Below are positions 1 to 15,033 of a DNA stretch of 25,360 bases, in pieces. Under the pieces are notes generated by a model. It was not told the origin of the DNA, made no database searches, and worked only from the letters and a program-made list of their open reading frames with translations. The stretch is from the IMG/VR virus record IMGVR_UViG_2734482786_000001, positions 1-25,360 of that record; one strand, written 5' to 3'. Position 1 is the stretch's first letter; each line of letters starts with the position of its first letter. Both the position numbers and the translations under genes were made by a program. Origin of the DNA: a virus. Its lineage: Duplodnaviria > Heunggongvirae > Uroviricota > Caudoviricetes.

Positions 1-1063
1 CTTCTCCCAAACCAAGGTATGTGAGAAGACCAGCTACATCCTTTCCACTCAAATTAGTCAGCGTATTGTCCAGCGGTTGTTTACCTGCCAGCGCATTAAG
101 CATTGTCGTGGCAAAGTTCGGATCATTCCCCAGTGCCGCCGCCAGTTCGTTCAGTGTATCCAGTGCCGCAGGTGCAGAACCCACCATTCCTGCAATCGCC
201 GATTTCACAAAAGCCGTAGTGGCAATCTGTGTATTATTGACCGACTGCGCCGCCGTAGGGGCTGTTGGCGTTCCGGTGAGTGCCGGACTCGACAGCGGCG
301 CTTTCAGTGCCAGCGCATTGTTAATGGTGGTACTGAATTTCGGATCATTGTTAATGGCTACGGCTATTTCTTTCAGCGTGTCCAGCGTGGCTGGCGCACC
401 ATTAATAAGAGCCGTCAGTGCCGCCTGAACAAACGCGGTGGTCGCAACCTGCGTGGTGTTATTCCCCGCCGCTGGCGTTGGCGCTTTGGGGGTTCCGGTA
501 AACGTCGGACTTTCTTTGGGCGCATACTGTGAATGCGGGTCCGGTGCGGCAAGATGTTTTGCCATCAGGTCATCCACGTACACCTTCAGCTCCAGTGCCT
601 TGTCATCCACATACTTGCGGGTTGCCAGCACTACGGCAGGGTCGATTTTCAGGGTGATATTGTCCGTGCTGCTGGTAATCAACACCATACGCACGGTCTG
701 GGTACGCCCGCTGCCTTCAGCCAGTTGCGGCTTATAGCTTTCCGGGCAGTTGCCCACGGCAATCAATGCCCCGGACTCATCAAACAGGCCCACTTCACGT
801 ATCCACCAACCGCCCTCGTTTTCAGGGATCACCTGTTCAGCAATAATCTGGCTGCTGTTCTGCGGGTCGATGTACAGCATATTCAGCGCAGCCCGGCGTT
901 TCTCATTTACTAATGCTGTCTGCTTTGCGTCCGGCGTTGGCAATGTTCCGCCGCCATCGCCTACCGCCATATGGGTAATTTTTAAAGGCACACCGAGCGC
1001 GGCGGCGCTGGCAAGTTTCGCCGCACCAATATCCGTCAGCAGGGTATAAAATTTTGTGCTCAT
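1..1063 (-). CDS. H: Tail fibre protein (gpH-like), N-terminal part; gene continues beyond window start
   Basis: Minus-strand ATG at 1063..1061 overlaps the stop of gene I; no in-frame stop before position 1. Manual translation gives a gpH-like N-terminus; no complete ORF in the track because the stop lies outside the window. Confidence 0.75.
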   Translation of the reverse strand, partial: MSTKFYTLLTDIGAAKLASAAALGVPLKITHMAVGDGGGTLPTPDAKQTALVNEKRRAALNMLYIDPQNSSQIIAEQVIPENEGGWWIREVGLFDESGALIAVGNCPESYKPQLAEGSGRTQTVRMVLITSSTDNITLKIDPAVVLATRKYVDDKALELKVYVDDLMAKHLAAPDPHSQYAPKESPTFTGTPKAPTPAAGNNTTQVATTAFVQAALTALINGAPATLDTLKEIAVAINNDPKFSTTINNALALKAPLSSPALTGTPTAPTAAQSVNNTQIATTAFVKSAIAGMVGSAPAALDTLNELAAALGNDPNFATTMLNALAGKQPLDNTLTNLSGKDVAGLLTYLGLGE

Positions 1064-1665
1064 GGATTCACTCTCATTGTGTCAATAACATGGACCGCCC
1101 CGCCTTCATGCGCGGTGCCACCGGAAATAATTGTTTCGTTGATATACGGATAGATCGTGATTTCTTCGCCAATATAGCTGGCGGCTCCCACCCAATGCGG
1201 GCCGCTGGTCTGCAGATTGATGGACATGCCGATCATGTGACGGCTACATGGCTTGGCATCGCTTATCAGTCGCTCAAGTTCCAGATAGGTATCTTCAGTG
1301 ATGCCCTGGTCCTGCACGCCGATATCTAGGCGAAACGTGCCCGGTGCCTCTCCGGTCTGCCACCACTCAATAATGCGGATCAGAAAGCCGAACGGCTCCA
1401 CCACCCGCCGCACGGCACTGGTGGTCCCTTTATGCTGATGAATATAAAAAGCATCCTTCACCACCTGGCGCTTGACGCTTTCTGTCCAGCCCTCGTCCCA
1501 GCGATCCACAGAGAACGCCCAGGCGAGATAAGGCAGGAAACTGACCGGACAGGTTGCCGGATTCCACAAGTCACGCAGCGGCACCTGCAGATCAGAAATC
1601 CCGCTGCAGGTTTGCGCCAGTCGTCGCTCCAGTGAAGTTGAACCCGGTGGCAGCAGACTATTCAT
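1060..1665 (-). CDS. I: Baseplate assembly protein gpI
   Basis: 201-aa ORF with ATG start; contains the conserved segment 'RDLWNPATCP...LPYLAWAFSVDRWDEGW' recalled from P2 gpI; sits between J and H. Confidence 0.8.
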   Translation of the reverse strand: MNSLLPPGSTSLERRLAQTCSGISDLQVPLRDLWNPATCPVSFLPYLAWAFSVDRWDEGWTESVKRQVVKDAFYIHQHKGTTSAVRRVVEPFGFLIRIIEWWQTGEAPGTFRLDIGVQDQGITEDTYLELERLISDAKPCSRHMIGMSINLQTSGPHWVGAASYIGEEITIYPYINETIISGGTAHEGGAVHVIDTMRVNP

Positions 1666-2566
1666 CCGTTCCTCCGTTGGTCACGCTCCACTGCGTACAT
1701 GATGCCGCCTGTGTTTTGTTCAGGACCACATCCGCCAGAGGAGAAGCCAGCTCCACACGCTGCACACCCTCAACATGCAGGGCGGCAAAGATGGCGCTAC
1801 GGCGAATATCCCGACCAAGACGCGTCTGACTGGCAATGTACCTCTGCAGGCTGGCTTTTGCCGCTGCCATTACCGGCTCTGCTTCCGGTCCCGGATAGAG
1901 AAAAATGGTGGCTTCCACGCGGTACGGGATGATTTCCGCGCTGCGAACCGTAAGACGGTCAGCCACCGGGCGGACGTTCTCACTGTTCAGAGCTTTTTCC
2001 ACCACGTCCAGCAGGTCTTTTTCTGCAGTTCCATCGCCTTCGCGGCTAAGGACAGTCAGCACCACCTCTGCAGGTGCCGGGCTGGTTGCACTGGCATCCG
2101 CCACCCGACCGTCGGCGCTTCGGGCATGAAATTCATAAGCTGCAGTTGGCCCCGCAACTGAAAGCCCTTCAAAGGCTGCAGGCACACGCAGGCGTAACGC
2201 TTCATCGCTTTCCATCACAGCTGCAACGGGCGGCACAGCGTCATTATCAGCAGGCGTCACCGTCAGGCGTTTCACGTTGTAGTTGGCAGCGAGCTGGTCA
2301 AGATCGCTGCCCGGCGCGTAAGCCACCATCACAGCCTGCGCGGCTTCGTTAATGCGCTGGCGCAGAAGCAACTCACGGTAAGCGTTCTCCTGCAGCAATT
2401 TGGTGACGGGTTCAGATTCCAGTTCCAGCGTGCGGATCACTGCTTCCTGCTCATCTTTCGGATGAAGCGCCACAAATTCTGCCTTGCGTTCGGCAAGCAG
2501 CGTCTCAAAGTCCGGCACATCCACAATCTGCGGCGCAGGCAACTGCGAAAGGTCAATCACTGCCAT
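1658..2566 (-). CDS. J: Baseplate protein gpJ
   Basis: Track ORF 1658..2605; start moved to the ATG at 2566 (MAVIDLSQLPAP...), which has an AGGAG RBS upstream and gives 302 aa, the P2 gpJ size. Confidence 0.85.
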   Translation of the reverse strand: MAVIDLSQLPAPQIVDVPDFETLLAERKAEFVALHPKDEQEAVIRTLELESEPVTKLLQENAYRELLLRQRINEAAQAVMVAYAPGSDLDQLAANYNVKRLTVTPADNDAVPPVAAVMESDEALRLRVPAAFEGLSVAGPTAAYEFHARSADGRVADASATSPAPAEVVLTVLSREGDGTAEKDLLDVVEKALNSENVRPVADRLTVRSAEIIPYRVEATIFLYPGPEAEPVMAAAKASLQRYIASQTRLGRDIRRSAIFAALHVEGVQRVELASPLADVVLNKTQAASCTQWSVTNGGTDE

Positions 2567-2912
2567 TCTCTGCTCCTGTTGATACGGAAAGGGAAACAGG
2601 CACACCGTTATTACGCCGCCCGTTCAGCGCCACCACCATTGAACCGTCAAAATTGCTGTTAATAGTGATGGAATCCAGCGTCAGCCGTGGCTCCCAGCGA
2701 CTCAGTGCCACATACACAGCCGACATAACCTGCAGGCGTAACGCCGGATTTTGTGGCTGATCTATCAGTGCCGACAGCAGGGAACCATATTCCCGACGAG
2801 CAATGCGGCTACCCTGCGGCGTCAGCAGAATGTCCCGCACCGACTGGCGCAGATGGTCAATATCAGTAATGGCTTTACCGCTGGTATTGTTCATCCCGCT
2901 ATAAAGCGTCAT
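2553..2912 (-). CDS. W: Baseplate wedge protein gpW (gp25-like)
   Basis: 119-aa ORF, ATG start overlapping the V stop; size and position match P2 gpW. Confidence 0.8.
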   Translation of the reverse strand: MTLYSGMNNTSGKAITDIDHLRQSVRDILLTPQGSRIARREYGSLLSALIDQPQNPALRLQVMSAVYVALSRWEPRLTLDSITINSNFDGSMVVALNGRRNNGVPVSLSVSTGAENGSD

Positions 2913-3487
2913 ACCGGGCCTCCGGTTGTGTCGCCGCCTTTCAGGACGCCAGTATGCTGATGCGCATCAACCACGATCCCGTTAGAACTCATCGCTCCGC
3001 CGCCCTGGGTAACGCCACCATTGATCACCACTTCGCTGTTAATGCGCGTGCGGTCAGCCTCCAGTACAAACTCACTGGTTTTCATGGTGATGTTGTCAGC
3101 GGCCTCAATGACCATTGATTTGATGCCCCTGACATACCAGCGCCCGGTGGCGGGTTCGTATTCAAACCAGCCACCGTCCGGGTACTCAACCACGTTGCCG
3201 TCCTCAGAATCTGAAGGTGGCGGAAACTGGTTTGAGTAGACCGCAGGCAGGGCAAACGCGGTTTCCAGATTGCCGCCCAGACTCAGCAGCACCACCTGCT
3301 CACCTTCCGATGGTTTCCACCATGTGCGGGCATTACCCGCGCGCAGCGTCAGCCAGTTAATCCAGTTGGTTTCAAGGTCGCCCGTTTTCACCCGGCAAAG
3401 CCAGTTTTCCCGGTCCACTTCGGTGACTACACCTGTGCGGATCAGGTTGGTGATAAGGCGCATGATTTCGGTTAATTGTGCGTTCAT
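2909..3487 (-). CDS. V: Baseplate spike/hub protein gpV
   Basis: 192-aa ORF with ATG start; N-terminus (…IRTGVV.E.D…CRVKTG…) resembles P2 gpV as recalled. Confidence 0.85.
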   Translation of the reverse strand: MNAQLTEIMRLITNLIRTGVVTEVDRENWLCRVKTGDLETNWINWLTLRAGNARTWWKPSEGEQVVLLSLGGNLETAFALPAVYSNQFPPPSDSEDGNVVEYPDGGWFEYEPATGRWYVRGIKSMVIEAADNITMKTSEFVLEADRTRINSEVVINGGVTQGGGAMSSNGIVVDAHQHTGVLKGGDTTGGPV

Positions 3488-3533
3488 AGGGAAAGGTTGC
3501 CATCAGGGGAAGAAAGCCGGCAGTGCTGCAACT

Positions 3534-3551
3534 TGTATCAGCGCTGATACA
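3534..3551. promoter_or_regulatory. Candidate late-promoter activator site: perfect palindrome TGTATCAGC|GCTGATACA (TGT-N12-ACA) between S and V
   Basis: Exact 18-bp dyad matching the TGT-N12-ACA motif bound by Ogr/Delta-type zinc-finger activators at P2-family late promoters; lies in the S-V intergenic region where P2 has its V promoter. Confidence 0.4.
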
Positions 3552-3555
3552 AAGA

Positions 3556-4002
3556 TCACCCCGCCAGCCATTGCAGAATCATGTCGCGGGTCATTGCCTC
3601 AACATCATCATTTACACCCAGAAGGCGACGCTCTGCGTAACGGACCTCAGGTCCTTTGCGACTGACGCGATCACGTAAGCCGTAGTGATGAACGCGGGCA
3701 ATACGCTGCACCTTACCTTCAAACTGTACGCTGGCAGAATCGGCGCTGGCTGCAGTTTTCAGGTATTTTGTGGTGCGCAGCTTTGCAAACATCTGACGTT
3801 TGATGCGCCCCTTTTTACTGCGTGCTGTTACCCGTCGAGGTTCATAGCTGCTGCCATCAGGGTTGCGCTGCATCCTGATATTCTGCTGCTGTGTCCGGCG
3901 CAGTTCCTGCGCCAGCTGGCGCATCATGCGGCTTCTTGCGGCTGGATCCAGATTCGCCAATAATGCACTCAGCCAGTTGTCCACCTTCTGCAGTTCAGCC
4001 AC
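3556..4002 (-). CDS. S: Tail completion protein gpS
   Basis: 148-aa ORF, apparent GTG start overlapping the R stop; position and size match P2 gpS. Confidence 0.75.
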   Translation of the reverse strand: MAELQKVDNWLSALLANLDPAARSRMMRQLAQELRRTQQQNIRMQRNPDGSSYEPRRVTARSKKGRIKRQMFAKLRTTKYLKTAASADSASVQFEGKVQRIARVHHYGLRDRVSRKGPEVRYAERRLLGVNDDVEAMTRDMILQWLAG

Positions 4003-4426
4003 GTTTCACCGTCCACATTTCTTCAGGTTCATCAGGTTCCGCTACCGCTTCAACGTTCGACACACTGCCGTCAGTTCTGACCAGCACACGTTCCGTCAGT
4101 TGCAGGTTAAGGCTGATATCACAGACATCGTTGCGCAGAATATCCACCTCAAAGGTGAATAGCTTTTCCCGTAACGCCGGGTTATTGATGGCATCGGGCT
4201 GGTTATCCCGCAGCCACAATAAAACCGGGGCCATCAGCAGATTCTGGTCGCCGCTGAAATCCTCAATCACCGCGTTCAGGGTGTAACGATACTCCCACGA
4301 CATGGAGCTGGCCCCCGTGGCAACCAGCGAACCGTTATCCACAAACAGATGCAGTTTGTCCGGGTTATTGCGGACATAAGGCACCGCTTTATTGAGGGCG
4401 TGGCGCAGGGATTGTGGTTTGTTCAC
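3995..4426 (-). CDS. R: Tail completion protein gpR
   Basis: Track ORF 3995..4447 begins at TTG; the GTG at 4426 (…NKPQSLRH…) has a GGAG RBS 7 nt upstream and aligns with the P2 gpR N-terminus as recalled. Confidence 0.7.
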   Translation of the reverse strand: MNKPQSLRHALNKAVPYVRNNPDKLHLFVDNGSLVATGASSMSWEYRYTLNAVIEDFSGDQNLLMAPVLLWLRDNQPDAINNPALREKLFTFEVDILRNDVCDISLNLQLTERVLVRTDGSVSNVEAVAEPDEPEEMWTVKRG

Positions 4427-4679
4427 TGTTTCGCTCCTGACACGCAATAATCATGTCCACTTTGTCTGCACAGACCGCCCAGGCGGCCTCCGTTTCATCC
4501 AGCAATGCGTTCAGATCACCGTTAGTGCGCGGCGCTGCCTGCTCCAGCCGACACGGCGTCACTCGCGGACAACCACTGACGGTAAGCTGCACCTCCGGTG
4601 AGTGCCGGACGTTCCCGCAGCCGGATAATGTCAGCAGGCAAAGGAGTATCAGCCCAGCGGCGTAAATCCTCGTTCTCAC
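4389..4679 (-). CDS. lysC: LysC, Rz1-like outer-membrane lipoprotein (o-spanin), overlapping lysB in another frame
   Basis: 96-aa ORF with signal peptide and lipobox (LLTLSGC), Pro-rich C-terminus; GTG start inside lysB, as in the P2 lysB/lysC arrangement. Confidence 0.6.
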   Translation of the reverse strand: MRTRIYAAGLILLCLLTLSGCGNVRHSPEVQLTVSGCPRVTPCRLEQAAPRTNGDLNALLDETEAAWAVCADKVDMIIACQERNSEQTTIPAPRPQ

Positions 4680-4950
4680 GTTTCAGTTCCTCCATCCGGC
4701 GTTGTCGTTGTCTCAGCAGTGCGCTGGTCTGTTCTGCTTCGGCGTAGAGCCGCGCCTGCTCCCGGTTGTTGGTTTCAGTCAGAATGGACAGGCTGATAAG
4801 CTGGCTGTTGCTCTTTGCCAGTGCCTGGCTTTTGCTCTGCAGCTCGTCTGCCTGCGTGCTGATGGTCTGGCTGGCATCAGCCAGCCGCCACGTCTGCCAA
4901 CCCAGCGCCGCCAGTAATAACGCCAGCATAACCAGCAGCAACCGGTTCAT
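4522..4950 (-). CDS. lysB: LysB, Rz-like inner-membrane spanin (i-spanin)
   Basis: 142 aa with N-terminal transmembrane segment (LLLVMLALLLAALGW) followed by a coiled-coil-like charged region; ATG start overlapping the lysA stop. Confidence 0.7.
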   Translation of the reverse strand: MNRLLLVMLALLLAALGWQTWRLADASQTISTQADELQSKSQALAKSNSQLISLSILTETNNREQARLYAEAEQTSALLRQRQRRMEELKRENEDLRRWADTPLPADIIRLRERPALTGGAAYRQWLSASDAVSAGAGSAAH

Positions 4951-5324
4951 GCTGCTACCTGTTGCGCCATCTGATTACGGGTGATCCAGAAGGCAATAAC
5001 GGTCAGCAGATAAAAGACCAGGGTAATAGCCCACCCCGTCCAGGCGAGACTTACGACAATCAGCAATCGCCTCACCCAGCTGATAAATACGTTTTCTTTT
5101 CGGGTAATGGTCTTCAGCAAAGATGCCCTCAACTCCTGCCAGAGCGAGCCATTCTTAATTAACGCAGCCAGTGCTACCGGAATTACCGCCCATGTCAGTA
5201 AACAGGCTACCCAAACGCCGGACGCTGCCAGTACCGGAAAAATCCCCTGCGGATACACCATTGCTGCAATTAACAGCGCCATCCATAACATCAGAAACAG
5301 CCCGCTGATTAATTTCTTTTTCAT
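4947..5324 (-). CDS. lysA: LysA-like lysis-timing membrane protein
   Basis: Multi-pass hydrophobic protein after the endolysin; start placed at MKKKLISGLF…, immediately after the K stop, rather than the longer track ORF to 5396. Confidence 0.55.
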   Translation of the reverse strand: MKKKLISGLFLMLWMALLIAAMVYPQGIFPVLAASGVWVACLLTWAVIPVALAALIKNGSLWQELRASLLKTITRKENVFISWVRRLLIVVSLAWTGWAITLVFYLLTVIAFWITRNQMAQQVAA

Positions 5325-5325
5325 T

Positions 5326-5838
5326 TCAGTTTGCTCCCTGTAAACACCAGGCCATCTCCCGCTCACGGCGGTTATCCAGCCCCTGATTAAACACACCTTT
5401 CACATAAACCCAGCGCGGCAACTGTCGGCACGCATCCGCCCAGCGCCGCTGGTTGAGCAATTTCACCAGCGTGGAACTGCAGGCATTGCCTGTCCCCACG
5501 TTGAAGGCAAACGACACCACCGAGTCATACACCTTTTGTGGCGGCTGTTGCTTCACACATCTTTCCAGCGCCCGCTCCACACGCAGCACGTTGGAGATAA
5601 GCCCTTCTGCTGCCTGTCGTTCCGTAATGGTTTTGCCGGGAATGACGCCCGACGTATTACCAATGCCGTCAGTCCATACACCCGCGCTGCACTGATACGG
5701 CTGCAGACGACAGCCTTCGTAATCGGCAATCAGTTTCAGCCCCTCCACGGAGGTGTGAAGCTGCTGAAAACCCGGCAGCGTGGCAGCAATAGCCAGCACG
5801 GCCCCTACAAGGCAGCGTTTAACGATTGATGGATTCAT
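5326..5838 (-). CDS. K: SAR-type endolysin (lysozyme, phage 21 R-like)
   Basis: 170 aa; N-terminal hydrophobic signal-anchor-release segment (CLVGAVLAIAATLPG); E-8x-D-5x-T lysozyme motif region and C-terminal similarity to recalled R21 (…LLRKINQ…RRWTYAGG…REIERE…CLWG). Confidence 0.85.
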   Translation of the reverse strand: MNPSIVKRCLVGAVLAIAATLPGFQQLHTSVEGLKLIADYEGCRLQPYQCSAGVWTDGIGNTSGVIPGKTITERQAAEGLISNVLRVERALERCVKQQPPQKVYDSVVSFAFNVGTGNACSSTLVKLLNQRRWADACRQLPRWVYVKGVFNQGLDNRREREMAWCLQGAN

Positions 5839-6034
5839 AGTCCTCCCGCGAGATCTGCCCGTCGCGCAGAAGCTGGTAGGCTTTGTGTTTGTAGTACCAG
5901 TTGATAGCCAGCATCAGCACACCAATCATCAGGCCGCCCAGCGTTGAGGCATCCTTGATGGACAAATCGCCCAGCCAGGCCAGCACAACGGCGATGCAGT
6001 ACGTGATAAAGGCGCTGATTCGCTCAAGCGTCAT
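5819..6034 (-). CDS. Y: Holin (two-TMD, pinholin-like)
   Basis: 71 aa with two hydrophobic helices and a charged C-terminus; directly upstream of and overlapping the SAR endolysin. Confidence 0.7.
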   Translation of the reverse strand: MTLERISAFITYCIAVVLAWLGDLSIKDASTLGGLMIGVLMLAINWYYKHKAYQLLRDGQISREDYESINR

Positions 6035-6037
6035 AAT

Positions 6038-6241
6038 TCAGTCCCATAGCTGGACGGTCTGCACGGTGGTGGTAGTCGGAATGTCCGGCAGCTCCACCTG
6101 CAGCCCGTGAGGTAAAAAGGGGCCGTATTCGGCAAGCCCCGGATTTGCCTTCAGTACCTGCTCCGTGACACCCTGCGTGCGCCCGTAATGACGCCAGCAA
6201 AGCGCGTCCACCGTGTCATACTGATGCGCACGCACTTTCAT
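6038..6241 (-). CDS. X: Tail protein gpX
   Basis: 67 aa, the same size and position as P2 gpX; start overlaps the L stop (ATGA). Confidence 0.7.
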   Translation of the reverse strand: MKVRAHQYDTVDALCWRHYGRTQGVTEQVLKANPGLAEYGPFLPHGLQVELPDIPTTTTVQTVQLWD

Positions 6242-6705
6242 CAGATAAGCTCCACTGTGCAGTGCGGCGCGTCCTGTACCCGGCTGATGGCCCAGCGGGC
6301 GTCACGCCATAAATCACCGCTGGCTTCCGCCAGTTCCTCGCCCCGCTTCACACCGGATGCCGTGGCGTCATAGTCCTGGTAACGTTCGTTGAGCATGGCG
6401 CGTGCCCAGCAGTAAACCGCGTTGAAATAGTGCTGAATGCGCTCACTTTTGCCGTCCAGCTGTTCCGCCGGAACCTCTGCCAGCGAGGCATACCCCAGCA
6501 TCTGCTGGCGTCTGCGAAACTCATACAGCTCTGCGTTGACCTCCGAAATTGCCGACAGCGCAACCTGCTTTAAACGCGGCTGCGTCACCGTGCCGTCAGT
6601 GCGCATGACACTGCGAAACTCCGACAGGTCCACATCAGGCCAGAACGGCGTATTTCTGATGATTTCCGCCTGTTCCGGTGCCTGTTCTGGCGCAACAAAC
6701 TTCAT
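6241..6705 (-). CDS. L: Head completion/stabilisation protein gpL
   Basis: Track ORF starts at GTG 6768 with no RBS; the ATG at 6705 has AGGAGAAAG upstream. Contains …NTPFWPDVD… resembling P2 gpL. Confidence 0.75.
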   Translation of the reverse strand: MKFVAPEQAPEQAEIIRNTPFWPDVDLSEFRSVMRTDGTVTQPRLKQVALSAISEVNAELYEFRRRQQMLGYASLAEVPAEQLDGKSERIQHYFNAVYCWARAMLNERYQDYDATASGVKRGEELAEASGDLWRDARWAISRVQDAPHCTVELI

Positions 6706-6800
6706 GCTGCTTTCTCCTGAAATAGAGGGCGGTGGACGGGGTTTTGATGTGGCAGTGCCTTTCTCCACCCCGTGCCGCCCGTGCGCGGGGGCACGTTCTG

Positions 6801-7451
6801 TCAGCGGCTGTCATTGCGCAGTCTGCGCTCCAGCTGCTGTTTGTCTTTTTTCACGCCACAGCGGGGATCGAGCTGTAACGCATGGTTGAGATGATTAAGG
6901 GCAGACGCCGGATTGCTTTCACTCAGGACCGCGCCAATCGCTTTATGCAGACGCGCCCGTGACTGGTCCGGCATATCCAGACCGTCTGTCAGCTCCAGCG
7001 TCTGCAGCAACAGATCGGCATCAAAGCCGGTGGTGGCAAGCATTGCGCTCTGCGCGGCGTCTGCCATTTCCTCTGCCAGCACGGTCTGCACGTTGCGGTT
7101 ACCCAGCGGCATCACCCAGCCATGACGCAGGGCATGACGCCCGATCTCCAGCGCTCCGGCATAATCTCCGGCATCAATGCGCCACAGCATCACGTACATC
7201 AGCACGTCATCCTGTTGAGCGCCTCCGGCAGCCAGGACACCCTCTGCCCAGGCGGCGTACTTCGGCAGCAGCTCCACCTTGATTTCCGCTTTTTTGACCG
7301 TGGACTGAACGCCCTTGAGACGGCGGCGGTCTTCCGCCAGTTGCAGCAGCATCAGGTCATAGCCCGATGCGTGGCGAACACTGCCGCCCTCGCGGGCGGC
7401 CTGTTCAGCCTGAACGCGCAGGCGATGCTGCCGTGCGGGACTCAGGCTCAT
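6801..7451 (-). CDS. M: Terminase small (endonuclease) subunit gpM
   Basis: 216-aa ORF with ATG start, between N and L as in P2. Confidence 0.8.
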   Translation of the reverse strand: MSLSPARQHRLRVQAEQAAREGGSVRHASGYDLMLLQLAEDRRRLKGVQSTVKKAEIKVELLPKYAAWAEGVLAAGGAQQDDVLMYVMLWRIDAGDYAGALEIGRHALRHGWVMPLGNRNVQTVLAEEMADAAQSAMLATTGFDADLLLQTLELTDGLDMPDQSRARLHKAIGAVLSESNPASALNHLNHALQLDPRCGVKKDKQQLERRLRNDSR

Positions 7452-7454
7452 GGA

Positions 7455-8513
7455 TTACGCTCCGATTTCGGCTGCGGCGGCGCTGAAATCACCAATCTGG
7501 ATGTTTTCCACCAGTGCGGCGCAGCGGTAGTCCTCAACCACATAGGCTTCGTTAACGGATTCAAAGTTTTCAATCCGGTCACGTTTCGGGTTGTCGATAA
7601 CTGAACGGCGGCGGGTGTCTTCCTGCCAGTAGATGGACAGGTTATCCAGACGGGTGATCAGCAGCGCATTCGGCGGGAAGAACGGCGCACGCACGGCCTG
7701 CAGGCCACCCATGCGTTTCTGACTGATGATCATATCGGCAGCCAGTTTTTCACTGTTTTCCTGCTCTTTGTTGACCAGCGGGAAATACTTGTCAGACAGC
7801 AGTTCACGACCGCAAATCACCACCAGATCGTCATCGTCCTGATAGACCACGTCGATAAGCTCATTAACGGCATCCATCACCACGGCGTCCAGGTTGGCAT
7901 ATTCGCCACCTTTCCCGACTTTCACCGCACCCGGTGTGGTTTCACCGCCCGTGGTGGTGCTGCCCATGACGTGATCCGGTGCATCCTCACGGATTTTCTG
8001 CAACCAGCCTTTATTCACATCCTGCAGTAACGGGTTTTCGCTACGGTTGGAGGTTTTCGCACGCTTCACGCCGTTAAAGCCGATCATGATGCGGTCCAGT
8101 GCCTGACGTTTCACGATGGCGTCACGGATACGCACCTGAAAATCCTGAAACTTCGCCCACAGGTCCAGCTTCGCGTAGGTCAGTACCGTGTCAAAGTTGG
8201 TCTGCTCGCATTTATATTCCACATCGACCATCAGCGTCGGATCGACAGGTTCACGCTCTTTCGCGGTGGTATCAGTGGTTCCGGCAATGGTGCTGCCAAC
8301 TCCCAACCCCAGCAGCTGACCGGACTGCTCAGTCACTGGCGTGACGTTAATCAGCGTCAGGAAAGCGGCGGACTGCTGGATCTGGTCTTCCAATGTCTGC
8401 TGCACGGACGGCTCTACGGTGAACTTGCTGGACAGTTCTTCAACTGCCACACCGTTCAGACGCGCCAGTTGCTGCAGGTAAGCGTTAAAAGCAAAGCGGG
8501 TATTCTTCTTCAT
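7455..8513 (-). CDS. N: Major capsid protein gpN
   Basis: 352 aa; ATG with GGAG RBS; long collinear similarity to P2 gpN as recalled (…FNAYL…KFTVEPSV…LDLWA.FQDFQ.RIR.AI.KRQ…GFNGVKRA…VIISQKR…). Confidence 0.9.
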   Translation of the reverse strand: MKKNTRFAFNAYLQQLARLNGVAVEELSSKFTVEPSVQQTLEDQIQQSAAFLTLINVTPVTEQSGQLLGLGVGSTIAGTTDTTAKEREPVDPTLMVDVEYKCEQTNFDTVLTYAKLDLWAKFQDFQVRIRDAIVKRQALDRIMIGFNGVKRAKTSNRSENPLLQDVNKGWLQKIREDAPDHVMGSTTTGGETTPGAVKVGKGGEYANLDAVVMDAVNELIDVVYQDDDDLVVICGRELLSDKYFPLVNKEQENSEKLAADMIISQKRMGGLQAVRAPFFPPNALLITRLDNLSIYWQEDTRRRSVIDNPKRDRIENFESVNEAYVVEDYRCAALVENIQIGDFSAAAAEIGA

Positions 8514-8529
8514 CAGGTTTTGTGCTCCA

Positions 8530-9363
8530 TCAGCAATTGGTCAGAGTGTCAGCGGGGGCGTTACCGCCTGTTGCACGCTGGCGGTAGTCCTGGCGGCTGT
8601 CTTCTTGGCTCAGCTTGTCCACCAGTTCGTTAAAGGCGGTCTGCTGTGCCTGCAGGGCAGTCTCCAGCTCAGACAGGCGTTCTTCCTGCTCAGACAGGGA
8701 TTTTTCGGTGCGCGCACTCAGGTTCTGCTGCTCAGTGGCGACCAGTTCCACGGCCTTATGCACATCAGAGAACCTGGCGTCATCGGACTGCTCTTTTTTG
8801 GTGAACAGCGCCGTGACACGGGCAAACAGGGACGGTTTGTCATCCTGGATTTCTTCCAGTTCGATCACCGTTTCCTCTGCAGCGGTAAAAAGATTGGCGG
8901 GATTCTGCTTGCGGTTTGCCAGCGGGTTATGGGCTGCACTGGCGCTGAATGTCAGCATTTCAGTGCCCAGACTGGCAGGGTCATCAGTGGCAGCCAGGCC
9001 AACCAGGTAGGCTTTTCCCGTATCAGCGAACTTCGGGCTGACTTCCATAGAGGTGAATAATTTCTGGCCTTTTTTCACCAGCTCCACCAGGGACTCCGTT
9101 GGCTCAACGTCGGCATACAGCGCCATCTTGCCTGCCAGTGGACCTTCCGTGATTTCTTCAGCAAACAGCGCCGTCACCTTGCCGTAGCGGTTAAAGGTGC
9201 TGTCCGGCAGATAAGACTTGATGTGCTCAAGGTTAATCAGCGCGGTATACACCGCCGGGTTGTAGCTGGCTGCCATCTGTTCCAGCCATTCACGCTGGAT
9301 TTCTCGTCCGTCGGTGGTGGCACCTTCCACCCCGATGCGAAAACGCTTTGCTTTCACTGTCAT
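8530..9363 (-). CDS. O: Capsid scaffolding protein gpO
   Basis: 277 aa; …FRIGVEG.T.DGR…INLEH…YLVGLA.TDDPASLGTE… matches the P2 gpO family; C-terminal …ATGG…TNC. Confidence 0.85.
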   Translation of the reverse strand: MTVKAKRFRIGVEGATTDGREIQREWLEQMAASYNPAVYTALINLEHIKSYLPDSTFNRYGKVTALFAEEITEGPLAGKMALYADVEPTESLVELVKKGQKLFTSMEVSPKFADTGKAYLVGLAATDDPASLGTEMLTFSASAAHNPLANRKQNPANLFTAAEETVIELEEIQDDKPSLFARVTALFTKKEQSDDARFSDVHKAVELVATEQQNLSARTEKSLSEQEERLSELETALQAQQTAFNELVDKLSQEDSRQDYRQRATGGNAPADTLTNC

Positions 9364-9441
9364 GAGCCGTGCTCCGTTAGAAAAAACTTACTGGAGCCTT
9401 ATGGTTGCGGTGATGGGGGCAGTGAAACAATGCGCGGTATT

Positions 9442-9459
9442 TGTACCGACAACCACACA
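9442..9459. promoter_or_regulatory. Candidate late-promoter activator site (TGT-N12-ACA) in the divergent O/P intergenic region
   Basis: TGTACCGACAACCACACA lies about 87 bp upstream of the O start codon, consistent with a dyad centred near -55 of a late promoter driving O-N-M-L. Confidence 0.4.
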
Positions 9460-9505
9460 AACCGCAGGCGGGGAAAGCCTTCATTCAAGGCTGTAGGTTT
9501 GTGCC

Positions 9506-11272
9506 ATGAACACCACACTGACACCCGCAGATCTCGATCCCCGTCGGCAGGCCATGCTGCTGTACTTTCAGGGATACCGCGTCGCCCGCATTGCTGAAAT
9601 GCTGGGAGAGAAAGTTGCAACCGTTCACAGCTGGAAAAAACGCGACAAGTGGGGTGACTATGGGCCGCTGGATCAGATGCAGCTCACCACCGCCGCACGC
9701 TACTGCCAGCTCATTATGAAGGAGCACAAAGAAGGGAAAGATTTCAAAGAGATTGACCTGCTGGCGCGCCAGTCGGAACGCCACGCGCGGATCGGCAAGT
9801 TTAACAATGGCGGCAACGAAGCCGACTTAAACCCTAACGTCGCCAACCGCAACAAAGGCCCGCGCCGTCAGCCGGAAAAGAACGTTTTCACCGATGAACA
9901 GATTGAGAAGCTGGAAGAAATCTTCCATTCCTCCATGTTCAACTACCAGCGCCACTGGTGGGAAGCCGGAAAAACCAACCGCATCCGCAACCTGCTGAAG
10001 TCACGCCAGATCGGCGCGACCTTCTATTTTGCCCGTGAAGCCCTGATTGACGCCCTGCTAACCGGGCGTAACCAGATTTTCCTTTCCGCCAGCAAGACTC
10101 AGGCCCACGTCTTTAAGCAGTACATCATCGACTTCGCCAAAGAAGTGGAGGTGGAGCTGAAAGGCGATCCGATGGTGCTTCCTAACGGGGCCACGCTTTA
10201 CTTCCTCGGCACCAATGCCCGCACTGCCCAGAGTTATCACGGCAACCTGTATCTGGATGAATATTTCTGGATACCGAAATTCCAGGAGCTGCGCAAAGTG
10301 GCTTCCGGTATGGCTATTCACAAGAAATGGCGACAAACCTATTTTTCCACGCCATCCAGCCTGACTCATAGTGCTTATCCGTTCTGGTCCGGTGCGCTGT
10401 TCAACCGTGGGCGCAACAAAGCCGACAAGGTGGACATCGACCTGTCCCACAGCAATCTGGCCCCCGGCCTGCTGTGCGCAGACGGGCAATACCGCCAGAT
10501 AGTCACCGTGGAAGATGCGGTGCGCGGCGGCTGTAACCTGTTCGACCTTGACCAGTTGCGCATGGAGTACAGCCCGGACGAATACCAGAACCTGCTGATG
10601 TGCGAGTTTGTGGACGATCTCGCGTCCGTGTTCCCGCTCAGCGAGCTGCAGGCGTGCATGGTGGACAGCTGGGAAGTCTGGACCGACTTTCATGCACTGG
10701 CTCTGCGCCCGTTTGGCTGGCGCGAAGTGTGGATCGGTTATGACCCGGCAAAAGGTACGCAAAACGGCGACAGCGCCGGATGCGTGGTGGTGGCACCGCC
10801 AGCCGTGCCTGGTGGTAAGTTCCGCATTCTTGAGCGTCACCAGTGGCGCGGGATGGACTTCCGCGCCCAGGCTGACGCCATCAAAAAACTGACCGAGCAG
10901 TACAACGTGACCTACATCGGCATCGACTCGACCGGCGTCGGCCACGGGGTTTACGAGAACGTGAAAGCGTTTTTTCCAGCCGTCCGGGAGTTTGTCTACA
11001 ACCCCAACGTTAAAAACGCTCTGGTACTCAAGGCCTACGACATTATCAGCCACCGCCGTCTGGAGTTTGACGCCGGGCACACCGACATTGCGCAGTCATT
11101 CATGGCAATCCGTCGCGCCACCACCGCCAGTGGCAACCGCCCAACCTATGAAGCCAGCCGCAGCGAAGAAGCCAGCCACGCCGATCTGGCCTGGGCAACA
11201 ATGCACGCACTGTTTAACGAACCGCTGCAGGGCGAGTCCGCCAATACCAGCAATATTGTGGAGATTTTTTGA
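9506..11272 (+). CDS. P: Terminase large (ATPase) subunit gpP
   Basis: 588 aa; ATG start; size and position divergent from O as in P2; plus-strand gene pair P-Q. Confidence 0.9.
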   Translation: MNTTLTPADLDPRRQAMLLYFQGYRVARIAEMLGEKVATVHSWKKRDKWGDYGPLDQMQLTTAARYCQLIMKEHKEGKDFKEIDLLARQSERHARIGKFNNGGNEADLNPNVANRNKGPRRQPEKNVFTDEQIEKLEEIFHSSMFNYQRHWWEAGKTNRIRNLLKSRQIGATFYFAREALIDALLTGRNQIFLSASKTQAHVFKQYIIDFAKEVEVELKGDPMVLPNGATLYFLGTNARTAQSYHGNLYLDEYFWIPKFQELRKVASGMAIHKKWRQTYFSTPSSLTHSAYPFWSGALFNRGRNKADKVDIDLSHSNLAPGLLCADGQYRQIVTVEDAVRGGCNLFDLDQLRMEYSPDEYQNLLMCEFVDDLASVFPLSELQACMVDSWEVWTDFHALALRPFGWREVWIGYDPAKGTQNGDSAGCVVVAPPAVPGGKFRILERHQWRGMDFRAQADAIKKLTEQYNVTYIGIDSTGVGHGVYENVKAFFPAVREFVYNPNVKNALVLKAYDIISHRRLEFDAGHTDIAQSFMAIRRATTASGNRPTYEASRSEEASHADLAWATMHALFNEPLQGESANTSNIVEIF

Positions 11273-12303
11273 TGGGAAAGAGTAAGAAGAACCGCGCTGC
11301 GTCGACGAAACAGATCCAGCATAAAAGCCAGACTTCAGCCGAAGCATTCAGCTTCGGTGATCCCGTTCCTGTTCTGGACCGCCGCGAATTGCTGGACTAT
11401 GTGGAATGCGTACAGATGGATCGCTGGTATGAGCCGCCCGTCAGCTTTGACGGACTGGCACGAACCTTCCGCGCCGCCGTGCATCACAGCTCACCGATTG
11501 CGGTGAAATGCAACATTCTGACCAGCACCTACATCCCTCACCCGCTGCTCAGCCAGCAGGCTTTTTCACGTTTTGTGCAGGACTATCTGGTATTCGGTAA
11601 CGCCTACCTGGAGAAACGCACGAATCGATTCGGTGAAGTTATCGCCCTTGAGCCTGCGCTGGCAAAATACACCCGACGCGGATTAGATCTGGATACCTAC
11701 TGGTTTGTGCAATACGGCATGACTACGCAGCCGTATCAGTTCACGAAAGGCAGCATCTTTCATCTGATGGAACCGGATATCAACCAGGAGATCTACGGCC
11801 TGCCCGGTTATCTTTCTGCCATTCCGTCAGCCCTGCTCAACGAGTCCGCCACGCTGTTCCGCCGCAAGTATTACATTAACGGCAGTCATGCAGGCTTCAT
11901 CATGTACATGACCGATGCAGCGCAAAACCAGGAGGATGTGAACAACCTCCGCAATGCGATGAAAAGCGCCAAAGGTCCTGGTAACTTCCGTAACCTGTTT
12001 ATGTACTCGCCTAACGGTAAAAAGGACGGGCTTCAGATTATCCCGTTGTCAGAAGTGGCGGCGAAGGATGAGTTCCTGAATATCAAGAACGTGAGCCGGG
12101 ACGACATGATGGCGGCGCATCGTGTGCCGCCACAAATGATGGGGATAATGCCTAATAATGTCGGGGGGTTTGGGGATGTGGAGAAGGCCAGTCTCGTTTT
12201 TGTTCGTAATGAGTTAATACCATTGCAGAAACGACTAAAGGAACTAAATCACTGGCTTGGTGAGAAAGTAGTTAACTTTAAAACTTATGCCTTAAACTGT
12301 TAA
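11272..12303 (+). CDS. Q: Portal protein gpQ
   Basis: Track ORF starts at TTG 11269; the ATG at 11272 overlaps the P stop. About 343 aa. The last ~35 codons are AT-rich (see findings). Confidence 0.9.
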   Translation: MGKSKKNRAASTKQIQHKSQTSAEAFSFGDPVPVLDRRELLDYVECVQMDRWYEPPVSFDGLARTFRAAVHHSSPIAVKCNILTSTYIPHPLLSQQAFSRFVQDYLVFGNAYLEKRTNRFGEVIALEPALAKYTRRGLDLDTYWFVQYGMTTQPYQFTKGSIFHLMEPDINQEIYGLPGYLSAIPSALLNESATLFRRKYYINGSHAGFIMYMTDAAQNQEDVNNLRNAMKSAKGPGNFRNLFMYSPNGKKDGLQIIPLSEVAAKDEFLNIKNVSRDDMMAAHRVPPQMMGIMPNNVGGFGDVEKASLVFVRNELIPLQKRLKELNHWLGEKVVNFKTYALNC

Positions 12304-12320
12304 AAATTATTATGAAACAA

Positions 12321-12339
12321 GGCGCTTAACATAAGCGCC
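12321..12339. terminator. Bidirectional stem-loop between convergent Q and the DUF262 gene
   Basis: GGCGCTTA-aca-TAAGCGCC hairpin; on the minus strand it is followed by TTGTTTCATAATAATTTTT. Confidence 0.45.
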
Positions 12340-12348
12340 CAATATATA

Positions 12349-14130
12349 TTAGATTATATTATAGGCCTTCGCTGACATAGATAATGTTCTAATCTGAACT
12401 TTTTGGGCATTCCATTCCTCATCGTTAGATGAATACTCATCAATAAACTCATTAACCACCTTAAGGTTTGACTTCTTATACTCGTTTATTTTTTTACTTA
12501 AGCTATCATTTTTACATGATTCATTCAAAGTAAAGCAAAGAGGAAGAAGATTCCCCATTAATCCAACAACCTCTGAGTCAAAACTACTTTGTGCACCAAT
12601 ATGCTCGAGTGAAACTAAGTCTAATTTTAACTCATTAGTTCCTCGCAATTTCTTTTCAAAACGTTCAAAAATATACATTATGAGCTTACGCTGGGAGGCT
12701 TTTTTATTTGTATAAAATAAATTTTTAACAAATGCCTCATTGAATACTTTTTCATTTGGACTTTTCGCAGAAAAGTATGCTATTGCTTCACTAATGGTTG
12801 ATTCGATACTACGTTTATTAGTAGCTTTATCAAGGCTTACTGCTAATACTGAATACTTGGCGTCTATGCCAGAGGGTCTTAATCGGCAAATAGCATTAAA
12901 TCTAAAGTGGAATCTCTCTAAACACATTAGACACTCTATTAAACTTTTTTGCGAAAGACTTCTAGATTTATCTCTTCTTTTTCTTAATAATGACAAAATG
13001 AATGGGCGAGGGATTGAAACATTGAATATTTCAAATGCTTTAAGTGAATTGTAAATATCTCGCTGATCCTGTTGAGGCCAATCATCAATATCTGGAGAAA
13101 TTATCTTACAATATAAATCAACATCTTTATGCAACTCATCCAAAAATGAAATTGCAGTTAATCCATAAACACCATCATTTATCTCTCTTTTAAAGGCACG
13201 GTATAGTTGATCTTCACCTATATAATTAAACTTAGAAAGCCACCAACACCTGACATAATCAACCATTGTAGCGTTACTATCTCTAGCTTCGATGCAATTA
13301 GTAATATAATCCCATTTCTCTTTGGCTTTATCTATTGGATATGTTTCAATACAACTCTGGAAAACTTTATTTTTAATCAGATCAAGGGAGCTTAAGTTTA
13401 TTCCCCTTGCATTCAAAACCTCGAAAATATCATACGCGTCATCTTCCTTGCCTACTGATATCCTTACTAATTTAAGATAATTAGTAACCATATTGTAAAC
13501 GGCATTCAAGCAAAAAAGGTAATCTTCCTTTTTATACTTTACTGCACCGTCACGCAACAAAGAAGAACATAATGCTTTCTTTCCTAGCTTTCTGCTTAAA
13601 TACAACCCAGCATATTGAATCTTTTTATCTTCATCGCAAGTCACATCAGCTTTATGCTCAACTCTATCTTGGAATTTTAGTTTAAAAAAAGCCCTGTCAC
13701 TATTTTTAGAAAGCTTCTCAACTACTGAGTCGCCATTAGAACTGACAGAATTTCTATTGAACGTCTGATTTGCGGTTACGATATATGTTTTAAAAATATC
13801 ATCAGCAAATTCGGCCTTCCCATTTTTTCTTAAAAACCTAGAAATTAAAGAAAGTAGAATTGTAATAACACTGAAACGCTGCTGACCATCAACAATCTCC
13901 AAAACATTATCACTGTCAGCACCAGACAATACAATTGTACCAATAAAGTACTCATTGAATTCAAAGTCATCCCCTTTGGGATTTAATTTTATATTTCTTA
14001 TTATGTCTTGCCACAATTCATCAAGTTGTAACTTTTCCCAACTAAATTCTCGTTGATTCCGTGGAATCACATAACGCTGTTTAACAGAAAGTATATTTTT
14101 AATATTTAAAGGAGTTGCATCAAAATTCAT
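12349..14130 (-). CDS. DUF262/DUF1524 (GmrSD-like) nuclease family protein; candidate anti-phage defence gene
   Basis: N-terminal DUF262 signatures (VIPRNQREFSW, EIVDGQQRF, FEVLNARGINLSSLDLIKN) and C-terminal His-Me/HNH-like DUF1524 signature (SLEHIGAQ…GNLLPL…N). Start set at first ATG 14130 (RBS-like AGGGAA); the track ORF starts at TTG 14181. Strongly AT-rich relative to flanking phage genes. Confidence 0.75.
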   Translation of the reverse strand: MNFDATPLNIKNILSVKQRYVIPRNQREFSWEKLQLDELWQDIIRNIKLNPKGDDFEFNEYFIGTIVLSGADSDNVLEIVDGQQRFSVITILLSLISRFLRKNGKAEFADDIFKTYIVTANQTFNRNSVSSNGDSVVEKLSKNSDRAFFKLKFQDRVEHKADVTCDEDKKIQYAGLYLSRKLGKKALCSSLLRDGAVKYKKEDYLFCLNAVYNMVTNYLKLVRISVGKEDDAYDIFEVLNARGINLSSLDLIKNKVFQSCIETYPIDKAKEKWDYITNCIEARDSNATMVDYVRCWWLSKFNYIGEDQLYRAFKREINDGVYGLTAISFLDELHKDVDLYCKIISPDIDDWPQQDQRDIYNSLKAFEIFNVSIPRPFILSLLRKRRDKSRSLSQKSLIECLMCLERFHFRFNAICRLRPSGIDAKYSVLAVSLDKATNKRSIESTISEAIAYFSAKSPNEKVFNEAFVKNLFYTNKKASQRKLIMYIFERFEKKLRGTNELKLDLVSLEHIGAQSSFDSEVVGLMGNLLPLCFTLNESCKNDSLSKKINEYKKSNLKVVNEFIDEYSSNDEEWNAQKVQIRTLSMSAKAYNII

Positions 14131-14224
14131 ATCATCATTCCCTAGACATGACCATGGGTTGATCGTTAATTTACTTAACAAGATAGATTAAAACAACTAT
14201 TACTAATTCATATCTCAGCGCGCG

Positions 14225-14243
14225 CTCGTATCCCCGCCACGCC
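14225..14243 (-). other. Candidate cos site (19-nt cohesive end of P2/186-type)
   Basis: Minus strand reads GGCGTGGCGGGGATACGAG followed by CGCGCGCTGA; the first 13 nt match the 186 cos (GGCGTGGCGGGGAAAGCAT) as recalled, and the following GCGCGCTGA resembles the P2 left end. Confidence 0.4.
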
Positions 14244-14292
14244 TGCCCGCTTTATGTAGTGGTTTTCATGCACCTGCATGATCTACGCAAAA

Positions 14293-14312
14293 GCCCGCCA
14301 GTTCTGGCGGGC
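14293..14312 (-). terminator. Rho-independent terminator after the tum/DinI-like operon
   Basis: GCCCGCCAG-tt-CTGGCGGGC hairpin followed on the minus strand by TTTTGCG. Confidence 0.45.
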
Positions 14313-14447
14313 CTTAGCAAAAACGATCCTCAAACGATCATGCGATCTCATGCGGCATAGACATGCACTACAGAGCTAACGCCTCGCAAGGGCTCGTTGT
14401 TCAACCTTGCTGACGCCAGAAGCAAGTTCAGACGCCAGCAACGTTTC

Positions 14448-14681
14448 TTAATGCAGCCAGCTGTCGTCTTCCCACACCTTCTGCATAATTTTCATCACTT
14501 GTTTTCTTTCTTCGTCCTGTTGCAGCCCAGTCAGTTCCACACCGTTAGAGCTACCTTTGCGGATACGAATTACCGTTTTTGGATACAGGGGGCGCAGATT
14601 GCGGTAAAGCTCGGATTCAAGGGCGTCCAGGGTAGACTGGCTAATCTTCTGCTCTTTATCGATCATTATTTCAATGCGCAT
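14448..14681 (-). CDS. DinI-like protein (or C-terminal DinI-like domain of a Tum-type antirepressor)
   Basis: Start at MRIEIMIDK… with GAGGTGA RBS; MRIE…DAL..EL…WED.SW pattern matches the DinI family as recalled. The track ORF extends upstream to 14753. Confidence 0.7.
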   Translation of the reverse strand: MRIEIMIDKEQKISQSTLDALESELYRNLRPLYPKTVIRIRKGSSNGVELTGLQQDEERKQVMKIMQKVWEDDSWLH

Positions 14682-14691
14682 AAAAGTCACC

Positions 14692-14880: not shown

Positions 14881-14921
14881 CTTTCCTCCTATGACACCAC
14901 AAGCAATACTGTATACATAAC

Positions 14922-14941: not shown

Positions 14942-15033
14942 TATAATAATCTTACTGATGTAAAACGTTTTTTTACGTTCATCAGCCTGATATGCCTGGT
15001 ATTATTAAGAGCACGAATTGTTAACCCGCGTAA

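Follow-up and report, generated by a model that had tools for sequence, protein, structure and literature searches.

Where does the exchangeable DNA of a P2-like prophage begin: at the boundary of a gene or inside one? The question is raised by a stretch of DNA of 25,360 nucleotides (nt) (IMG/VR virus record IMGVR_UViG_2734482786_000001, positions 1 to 25,360; hereafter, the window), which, judged by its sequence, is a P2-like (Peduoviridae, Elveevirus-like) Escherichia coli prophage. In the window, the portal gene Q is followed by a single AT-rich gene on the opposite strand, the cargo, predicted to encode a defence protein of the GmrSD family, and then by the cohesive-end site, cos. The initial annotation had claimed that the last codons of Q switch abruptly to AT-rich sequence continuous with the cargo island, and had suggested that the recombination junction of the island lies within Q and replaced its native C-terminal coding sequence. 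P2-like phages are known to carry a cos-proximal defence hotspot between gpA and gpQ (Rousset 2022, PMC9122126; Vassallo 2022, PMC9519451; Moura de Sousa 2026, PMC13586616). We consider it probable that positions 12189-14216 are one exchangeable cassette of this hotspot, which includes the end of the portal gene together with the cargo, and that the cassette is swapped by the route proposed below.

Borders of the proposed cassette

The abrupt change in composition was confirmed. In sliding windows of 200 nt, the GC content was 0.50-0.53 through 12000-12199, 0.445 at 12100-12299 and 0.32 at 12200-12399; it remained at 0.30-0.35 as far as ~14100 and then returned to 0.5. The plot places the switch at ~12190, and the step from ~53% to ~32% GC falls at 12189, inside Q. 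The GC content of the tail of Q (12196-12300) is 0.33, and no 105-nt window within 1..12190 was under 0.42 (mean 0.56). GC at third codon positions (GC3) was 0.66 in the body of Q, 0.29 in its last 35 codons and 0.27 in the cargo gene, showing that the AT-rich end of Q is continuous in composition with the cargo island, as the initial annotation had it. The C-terminal peptide quoted there (...NELIPLQKRLKELNHWLGEKVVNFKTYALNC) is right for the frame 11272-12303. The parts of Q are as follows.

11272..12303, plus strand: portal gene Q, 343 amino acids (aa) (Pfam PF04860 Phage_portal, E = 1.5e-17)
11272..12188, plus strand: backbone part of Q, codons 1-305/306, GC-normal and common to prophages with different cargo (alignment of relatives)
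12187..12195, plus strand: left junction of the proposed cassette, codons Ala306-Ser307-Leu308 (change-points and alignment)
12189..12303, plus strand: AT-rich allele of the portal C-terminus linked to the cassette, last ~38 codons and stop (GC, GC3 and cargo linkage)

We compared Q with that of relatives carrying other cargo. Three E. coli prophages have the terminase protein WP_001098431.1 in common and carry as cargo a DUF4145 gene, a three-gene set or the GmrSD gene of the window; a fourth E. coli prophage that was compared carries an AIPR gene. The DUF4145 prophage (locus L085) was 100% identical to the window over 11926-12193 and then ~30% divergent, and the three-gene prophage (L086) had one mismatch (12105) in 11926-12177 and was then ~40-50% divergent. 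Dense mismatches against near-isogenic prophages thus start at 12178-12194, past which identity falls to 60-70%. Among 5,426 complete E. coli genomes, the Q body was matched in 1,231 and this tail with this cargo in 18; partial megablast matches in E. coli stop at 12192-12283 and resume at 14215-14219. The change-points of 49 cassette types against a consensus had a median of 12189 (interquartile range 12183-12193), in a scan that is possibly biased toward the earliest common divergence and that was cross-checked by the near-isogenic pairs and by direct reading of the alignment. In the alignment, the sequence left of 12186 has few, mostly two-state synonymous single-nucleotide polymorphisms (SNPs), and from 12189 nearly every third position is multi-allelic.

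The right border is placed at a single nucleotide. Column conservation between cassettes rises from 0.2-0.5 to at least 0.9 exactly at 14217 (AGCGCGCGCTCGTATCCCCGCC...), in all cassette types. The cohesive end aligns with the annotated cosL of P2 (GGCGAGGCGGGGAAAGCAC) and with cos of 186, and the core CCCCGCCACGCC at 14232 lies within this P2/186-like sequence; with the cohesive end placed by homology to P2, the right border would lie 8 nt to its left.

14217..14321, no strand assigned: conserved cos block, its first base being the right junction of the proposed cassette (conservation jump)
14225..14243, no strand assigned: 19-nt cohesive end CTCGTATCCCCGCCACGCC, complement GGCGTGGCGGGGATACGAG (homology to P2)

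A foreign island that illegitimate or site-specific recombination had inserted just once into the 3' end of Q, with island DNA supplying a new C-terminus by chance, would also produce an abrupt GC drop within the open reading frame (ORF), and the island is indeed a single horizontally mobile defence gene. However, the same border is used by ~50 other cargo types, the island carries no integrase, no direct repeats bracket the junctions, and the tail is homologous, invariant residues included, to the portal C-termini of P2, 186 and ~130 relatives. We see hardly any chance that such an insertion explains the locus. The GC switch, the near-isogenic breakpoints and the relatives without cargo described below all support a recombination junction within Q, as the initial annotation had suggested, and the part of that suggestion which falls is the single insertion: the junction appears to serve a whole cassette system, at a known hotspot, as its usual left border. 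Two mechanisms for the borders were tried and rejected: site-specific insertion or mobilization by an integrase, given the single island ORF, the lack of an integrase and the lack of att-like repeats pairing the junctions, and a Chi-driven left border, given that GCTGGTGG occurs on neither strand of the window.

The portal tail and its pairing with the cargo

We asked what the AT-rich tail encodes. The tail of the window, VFVRNELIPLQKRLKELNHWLGEKVVNFKTYALNC, aligns with that of P2, VFVRNELIPLQDRIREINGWLGQEVIRFKNYSLDTDND, and with the tail of 186, and the portal motif VFVRNEL.PLQ.R..E.N.W.G..V..F..Y.L is retained in AT-rich codons: GC3 over the same C-terminal region is 0.74 in P2, 0.89 in 186 and 0.29 in the window. 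The alignment with P2 and 186 thus revealed a switch of codon usage, as the initial annotation expected, but not the end of similarity that it had expected at the same place; likewise, the native C-terminal coding sequence was replaced, not by unrelated island DNA, but by a homologous functional allele. Residues F310, N313, E314, Q319, N326, W328, F336 and Y339 are invariant in 54 homologues. This conservation indicates that the tail is under purifying selection as a constrained portal C-terminus with its motif preserved. Most tails bear a clade-specific PLQKR and not the PLQDR of P2 and 186. An AlphaFold2 model of Q was poor (mean pLDDT, the predicted local distance difference test score, 46), and a helix at 303-329 (pLDDT 64-86) was its only confident part; the predicted last helix would begin at residue 303, so that the composition switch may coincide with its start. 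Q has no sequence-detectable homologue of solved structure. Four of the tail codons at 12196-12303 are rare in E. coli: one ATA, one CGA and two CTA. The Q 3' ends of three loci (L077, L069 and L038) have in-frame stop codons in their portal tails, which suggests decaying prophages.

Tail composition was then compared between loci with and without cargo, in 80 loci from a collection of one genome per species. In 11 of these, including P2 and 186, cos lies just 111-256 nt past the Q stop, and the median tail GC3 was 0.74; in the 48 loci with cargo it was 0.39 (Mann-Whitney p = 6e-6). Across this sample, tail GC3 correlated with downstream GC (Spearman rho = 0.71). Relatives lacking cargo between Q and cos, a comparison that the initial annotation had proposed, therefore have GC-normal tails, both in the 11 genome loci and in 78 of 80 loci of the P2 clade. 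Two loci in our collections, L064 (a metagenome-assembled genome labelled Bacillota) and L067 (a Chryseobacterium sp. assembly), have an enterobacterial-type Q (95% and 66% identity, respectively) with cassette and cos; these contigs are probably mis-binned or contaminants and do not represent true hosts.

These comparisons bear on the possibility that the AT-rich tail is a selected element of the phage, independent of cargo, which serves in H-NS nucleation, in translational slowing by rare codons or in the termination of convergent transcription. AT-rich tails are widespread in the clade of the window, the tail has its rare codons, and it adjoins a terminator-like hairpin, all of which would fit such an element. 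Yet phages of the same family without Q-side cargo have GC-normal tails, suggesting that AT-richness is not required for the function of Q or of the phage. In addition, the tails are private to each cargo type, are not conserved at the nucleotide level and follow the GC content of their islands. We regard a selected element of this kind as very unlikely.

The pairing of tail and cargo was analyzed in 86 close relatives whose Q is at least 93% identical; IMG/VR supplied 80 of these. The 49 island clusters and 51 tail clusters corresponded essentially 1:1; the sole splits were two cargo clusters, each with two related tail variants, and no tail was common to two cargo types among the 86 loci. 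We looked for the same AT-rich tail whatever the cargo, the finding that the initial annotation had named as contrary to its proposal, and found the tails to be cargo-specific. Pairs with the same cassette were 99-100% identical in tail and island, while their Q bodies matched at 92-100% and their terminase genes at 88-100%, and identical Q bodies can bear different cassettes. These data suggest that cassettes reassort with backbones and that the 1:1 pairing of tail and cargo is not an artefact of clonal sampling.

Between different cassettes, the mean identity was 0.91 in the Q body (11904-12177) and 0.62 in the tail (maximum 0.82), and the same codon was used for the same amino acid at a frequency of 0.75 in the body versus 0.39 in the protein-conserved VFVRNELIPLQKR block. 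This saturation of synonymous sites suggests that the tails are old. Over cassette types, GC content was 0.34 +/- 0.065 in the tail, 0.36 in the island and 0.53 in the body, and tail GC correlated with island GC (r = 0.46, p = 9e-4). A hairpin follows the tail as well: in 47 of the 49 cassette types, a hairpin particular to that type (folding free energy, dG, < -10 kcal/mol) lies within 70 nt of the Q stop.

Divergent tails on conserved bodies might also result from diversifying selection on the portal C-terminus, in escape from portal-sensing immunity or from satellite interference, with the linkage to cargo being secondary. In its favor, amino-acid identity, which is 0.99 in the body, is only 0.455 over the last 22 residues, and ~50 tail variants are found on near-identical bodies. 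However, synonymous sites are saturated too (same-codon fraction 0.39-0.51), so that divergence is old at both classes of site; the tails of the P2 clade are protein-invariant, though these phages live in the same host species; and the amino-acid changes track AT pressure (more N, K, I and F). We give this explanation very little credence.

Linkage on either side of the cassette and a proposed route of exchange

If cassettes move between backbones, their linkage to the flanking DNA should tell how far each transfer reached. We scored the discordance of common SNPs in same-cassette pairs as a ratio to that between cassettes, weighted by cluster and with a bootstrap over 20 clusters. To the left, into Q and P, the ratio rose gradually with distance from the cassette.

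0-10 nt: 0.13
10-58 nt: 0.32
60-150 nt: 0.39
150-300 nt: 0.42
0.3-0.9 kb: 0.58
0.9-1.5 kb: 0.75

To the right, the ratio was 0.03 at the cassette edge (14217-14222) and 0.95 (confidence interval 0.69-1.19) at 56-103 nt, past cos. Thus, linkage to the cassette fades over more than 1 kb into Q and P and is gone across the ~55-nt cos block.

The P2 clade (L175-L254, from IMG/VR) shows the mirror image. In 78 of its 80 loci, cos follows Q without any cargo in between; tail GC content is normal (0.49-0.54), and the tail protein sequence is nearly invariant, the listed variants differing at the last residue only. The AT-rich cargo lies right of cos, with its border within ~12 nt of the cos core. To the right of the core, at 12-111 nt, the ratio was 0.03-0.04, meaning full linkage to the cargo; left of cos it stayed flat at 0.67-0.73. 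Loss of linkage across cos in both clades, in mirror-wise fashion, suggests that cos itself is where linkage breaks.

Two rare loci of the P2 clade, L216 and L241, do have an AT-rich island between Q and cos (Q stop at 6035, cos at +1446 and +1882 nt, respectively). The left junction lies just past the tQ hairpin in L241 and ~150 nt past the Q stop in L216, and both keep the native GC-rich tail. These islands look like independent acquisitions with a different junction. That the junction of these two cargo loci without an AT-rich tail lies after the Q stop and terminator is a further point against a single chance insertion as the origin of the border in the window; it also suggests that a border inside the gene is a property of the cassette system of the window's clade and not a necessity.

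In the explanation that we favor, the cassette would contain, in order, an AT-rich allele of the portal tail, its own hairpin, a convergent GmrSD-type gene and the upstream region of that gene, and would be placed at the extreme end of the genetic map, which is linear and delimited by cos. A swap would need just one homologous crossover, at any point of the conserved Q/P backbone, together with the cutting of cos by terminase, the cos step being either cos-to-cos packaging of a heterodimer or recombination initiated at cos ends. Crossovers would end at the last well-conserved block (...GGFGDVEKA), and the tail would move with the cargo, because the tails are ~62% identical, with saturated synonymous sites and no stretch long enough for homologous recombination. 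Codons 307-308 would be the first unconstrained positions, and the next block, of 39 nt, would be too short and too diverged for homologous exchange. The tail would thereby be left out of the homogenization that keeps Q bodies 91-100% alike, and its AT-richness would mirror the compositional regime of the cassette while purifying selection preserves the portal motif. The AT-richness could stem from AT-biased mutation in a segment that rarely recombines, or from descent in hosts of lower GC. A possible route using cos ends and a second homologous event has been proposed (Rousset et al. 2022, PMC9122126).

A variant of this explanation, which bears on the origin of the composition only, is that tails and cassettes were imported from P2-like phages of low-GC hosts with a wholly AT-rich Q and were later trimmed by recombination. 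The tail GC3 (0.29), which equals that of the cargo (0.27), the correlation of tail GC with island GC, and the fact that tails differ mutually as much as the Q genes of separate genera would all fit an import. However, phage records share the tail at 84% over 63 nt at best, most tails have PLQKR and so descend from one and the same Q subfamily, known from hosts with 50-57% GC, and the trimming of random imports would not alone give one common breakpoint. The presence of PLQKR, not PLQDR, in most tails also argues against import from distant P2-like clades. We therefore think the import unlikely, though less so than the other alternatives.

The pairing itself may be read as selected and not passive, the last helix and C-terminal extension of the portal being a hypervariable module co-adapted with its defence cargo. 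If this were true, the tail could label capsids or packaging complexes as 'self' and thereby protect the prophage from its own immune gene or, alternatively, could tune the packaging of a genome with differing terminal DNA. We hold such co-adaptation to be highly improbable.

Several points weigh against the explanation that we favor. The evidence for the crossover comes from population genomics, and P2 rarely recombines during vegetative growth. The linkage ratios come from 20 multi-member clusters, with 11 in the P2-clade replicate, and depend on how prophages and IMG/VR were sampled; the SNPs right of cos may also be part of a second variable module. The very sharp left border (~5 nt in most cassettes) is explained by a passive argument only, and an active site-directed process is possible. 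Either source of AT-richness, mutation or lower-GC descent, would fit these data, and a donor of the tail is absent from 50,697 phage records, the best match being the one over 63 nt; tail plus hairpin together are found in none of these records. No sigma-70-like match for a cargo promoter was found in 14131-14216. Finally, cargo homologues at 71-85% nucleotide identity have tails only 63-79% identical to that of the window, and one such locus (L174) has a GC-rich tail. All six IMG/VR loci with GmrSD homologues have them between Q and cos, with one tail identical to that of the window and the others at 63-79%. Strict co-inheritance of tail and cargo at deep divergence was thus rejected, suggesting that the linkage holds at shallow to moderate depth only.

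Cargo, flanking features and comparison with known systems

The remaining parts of the proposed cassette are these.

12320..12340, minus strand: hairpin that separates the convergent Q and cargo genes and resembles a terminator of the cargo transcript (9-bp stem, 5 GC pairs, 3-nt loop)
12349..14130, minus strand: cargo gene, GmrSD family (DUF262 plus DUF1524-type), 593 aa, GC 0.32 (Pfam and PADLOC)
14131..14216, minus strand: AT-rich, cassette-specific region 5' of the cargo gene, presumed promoter (column conservation 0.2-0.5 between cassettes)

The cargo protein matched GmrSD_N (PF03235) over residues 11-258 (E = 4.2e-32), GmrSD_C (PF07510) over residues 460-586 (E = 3.4e-9; 37.1 bits, cut-off 23) and the PADLOC model HEC-06 over the full model length (E = 3.4e-73). 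The DGQQR motif is seen in its translation as 'VDGQQRF', and RefSeq lists a 'DUF262 domain-containing protein' at the equivalent coordinates of one related locus (L087). The cargo is thus a predicted type IV restriction or HEC-06-like defence protein. Upstream of it, an exact 10-nt direct repeat, AATTCATATC, occurs at 14124-14133, over the cargo start codon, and at 14205-14214, just inside the right border; it may be due to chance in AT-rich DNA.

The hairpin that the initial annotation had described between the convergent genes is real and lies between the Q stop (12303) and the cargo stop (12349). Its sequence is GGCGCTTA-ACA-TAAGCGCC at 12321-12339, extending to 9 bp at 12320-12340 on the minus strand, with a dG of about -13 kcal/mol and z-scores of -3.5 (plus strand) and -2.2 (minus strand). 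The annotation had called it bidirectional; our terminator scan called it on the minus strand only. There its tail is T-rich (TGTTTCAT), and the plus strand runs on as CAATATATAT without a T-run, so that a U-tract on both strands, and with it the word 'bidirectional', is not supported.

Right of cos, one further hairpin belongs to the backbone and not to the cassette.

14287..14318, minus strand: GC-rich hairpin right of cos (inverted repeat I14, 15-nt arms)

It is kept in all related loci, and its arms are GCAAAAGCCCGCCAG/CTGGCGGGCCTTAGC, a T-run being present on the minus strand. Our terminator scan passed over this hairpin, which probably terminates the transcript from the A/DinI side ahead of cos. 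A second variable spot lies between the cos block and the DinI-like gene (14322-14447) and is empty in the window; it holds an HNH endonuclease gene in L085 (5626-6345) and L086 (7662-8381), and a gene for a 141-aa hypothetical protein in L087 (6887-7312). L087 has the GmrSD cassette of the window, yet differs from it at this second spot.

The gene order is P, Q, cargo, cos (14217-14321), a DinI-like gene, a 96-aa ORF and an 804-aa A-like ORF, which occupies the position of the replication gene A; RefSeq loci are annotated in the same P-Q-cargo-cos-DinI-A order.

9506..11272, plus strand: terminase large subunit gene (gpP-like), backbone, 5' of Q (ORF list and annotation of homologous coding sequences)

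The homologous terminase coding sequence in E. coli loci L085-L088 is annotated as 'terminase ATPase subunit family protein'. Q itself has the PF04860 domain, its place after the large terminase gene and a C-terminal motif shared with P2 Q and 186 W, which are the marks of a P2 gpQ-type portal protein; its identity is 61.5% to P2 Q and 64% to 186 W, and RefSeq labels it 'phage portal protein' in an E. coli locus of 99.8% identity. The chromosome of E. coli strain 63-2 is 99.8% identical to the window over 11700-12700 and 99.9% over 12150-14260, and RefSeq gives at this locus the genes that we found in the window. Among named phages, Escherichia phage Cartapus, of the genus Elveevirus, comes closest; it is an isolated phage and has a cassette and tail of this type. 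Between cos and the replication gene, the DinI-like gene (14448-14753; Pfam DinI, E = 5.8e-23) and a small ORF without family match (14692-14982) are both on the minus strand; the RefSeq versions of the two in sister loci are 77 aa and 62 aa, shorter than the longest ORFs in the window.

These results have some practical consequences. The cos-proximal hotspots of P2 and P4 are a major E. coli reservoir of anti-phage systems. Hotspot mining that is cut at the annotated portal stop codon loses part of the cassette, portal-protein clustering and phylogeny in the window's clade are contaminated by ~38 cassette-derived codons, and engineered cargo swaps in P2-like vectors should include the matching tail and hairpin. 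With both borders at nucleotide resolution and asymmetric linkage, 'cos end plus one homologous crossover' becomes directly testable, and the AT-rich, protein-conserved tail offers a small natural experiment on base composition outside backbone recombination.

How does this locus compare with known systems? It has the placement and the hypervariability of the gpA-gpQ hotspot, which is the classical tin/old or 'TO' region. As there, the order is P-Q, cargo, cos, DinI and A, with the cargo adjoining cos, and the AT-rich predicted defence cargo is hypervariable among near-identical prophages and quickly swapped. Unlike in P2, whose cargo lies on the gpA side, the cargo in the clade of the window is on the Q side of cos. 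Whereas the hotspot papers cited above treat the portal gene as a conserved flank, the border here lies inside Q, at codon ~306, and the portal C-terminus and hairpin are private to each cargo type. Earlier work had already established the hotspot, the AT-rich and hypervariable nature of its cargo and the speed of swapping; this locus is one more member, with a GmrSD-type gene, and not a new kind of system. The texts of the hotspot papers do not mention a breakpoint in gpQ, and full-text searches, which did not cover Odegrip et al. 2006 on the TO region, found no relevant junction in a portal gene. In the literature so searched, the left border within a gene, the private functional AT-rich portal C-terminus and hairpin of each cargo, the nucleotide-precise shared borders and the loss of linkage across cos are unreported. 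The mechanism behind the very rapid swapping at the hotspot was described as not known (Rousset 2022, PMC9122126; Moura de Sousa 2026, PMC13586616).

Like GmrSD type IV restriction enzymes and HEC-06, the cargo protein has both Pfam domains in canonical order, the DGQQR motif and a full-length match to the HEC-06 model. Unlike a typical GmrSD, it is a single-gene version in a prophage cassette, and its activity and its target, modified DNA (e.g. glucosyl-hmC), are predicted ones.

The second comparison is with the genetic map of cos phages, which is linear during vegetative growth; in lambda, cos is a recombination hotspot (Stahl and colleagues). As expected of such a map, markers across cos are unlinked and linkage decays gradually at the other side of the cassette. 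The evidence here, unlike that in lambda, is population-genomic only. P2 packages from monomeric circles and recombines poorly, and a P2-type route to the same pattern could be packaging of a heterodimer or recombination initiated at the ends.

Finally, the cassette resembles the 'morons' and mosaic junctions of tailed phages known from modular evolution (Hendrix/Juhala). As in morons, an AT-rich accessory gene with its own terminator is flanked by conserved late genes on one side and a conserved site on the other, and composition changes sharply at the boundary. Unlike in morons, the junction falls inside an essential structural gene instead of between genes, a homologous allele fills the displaced part, and one junction is reused by ~50 cassettes.

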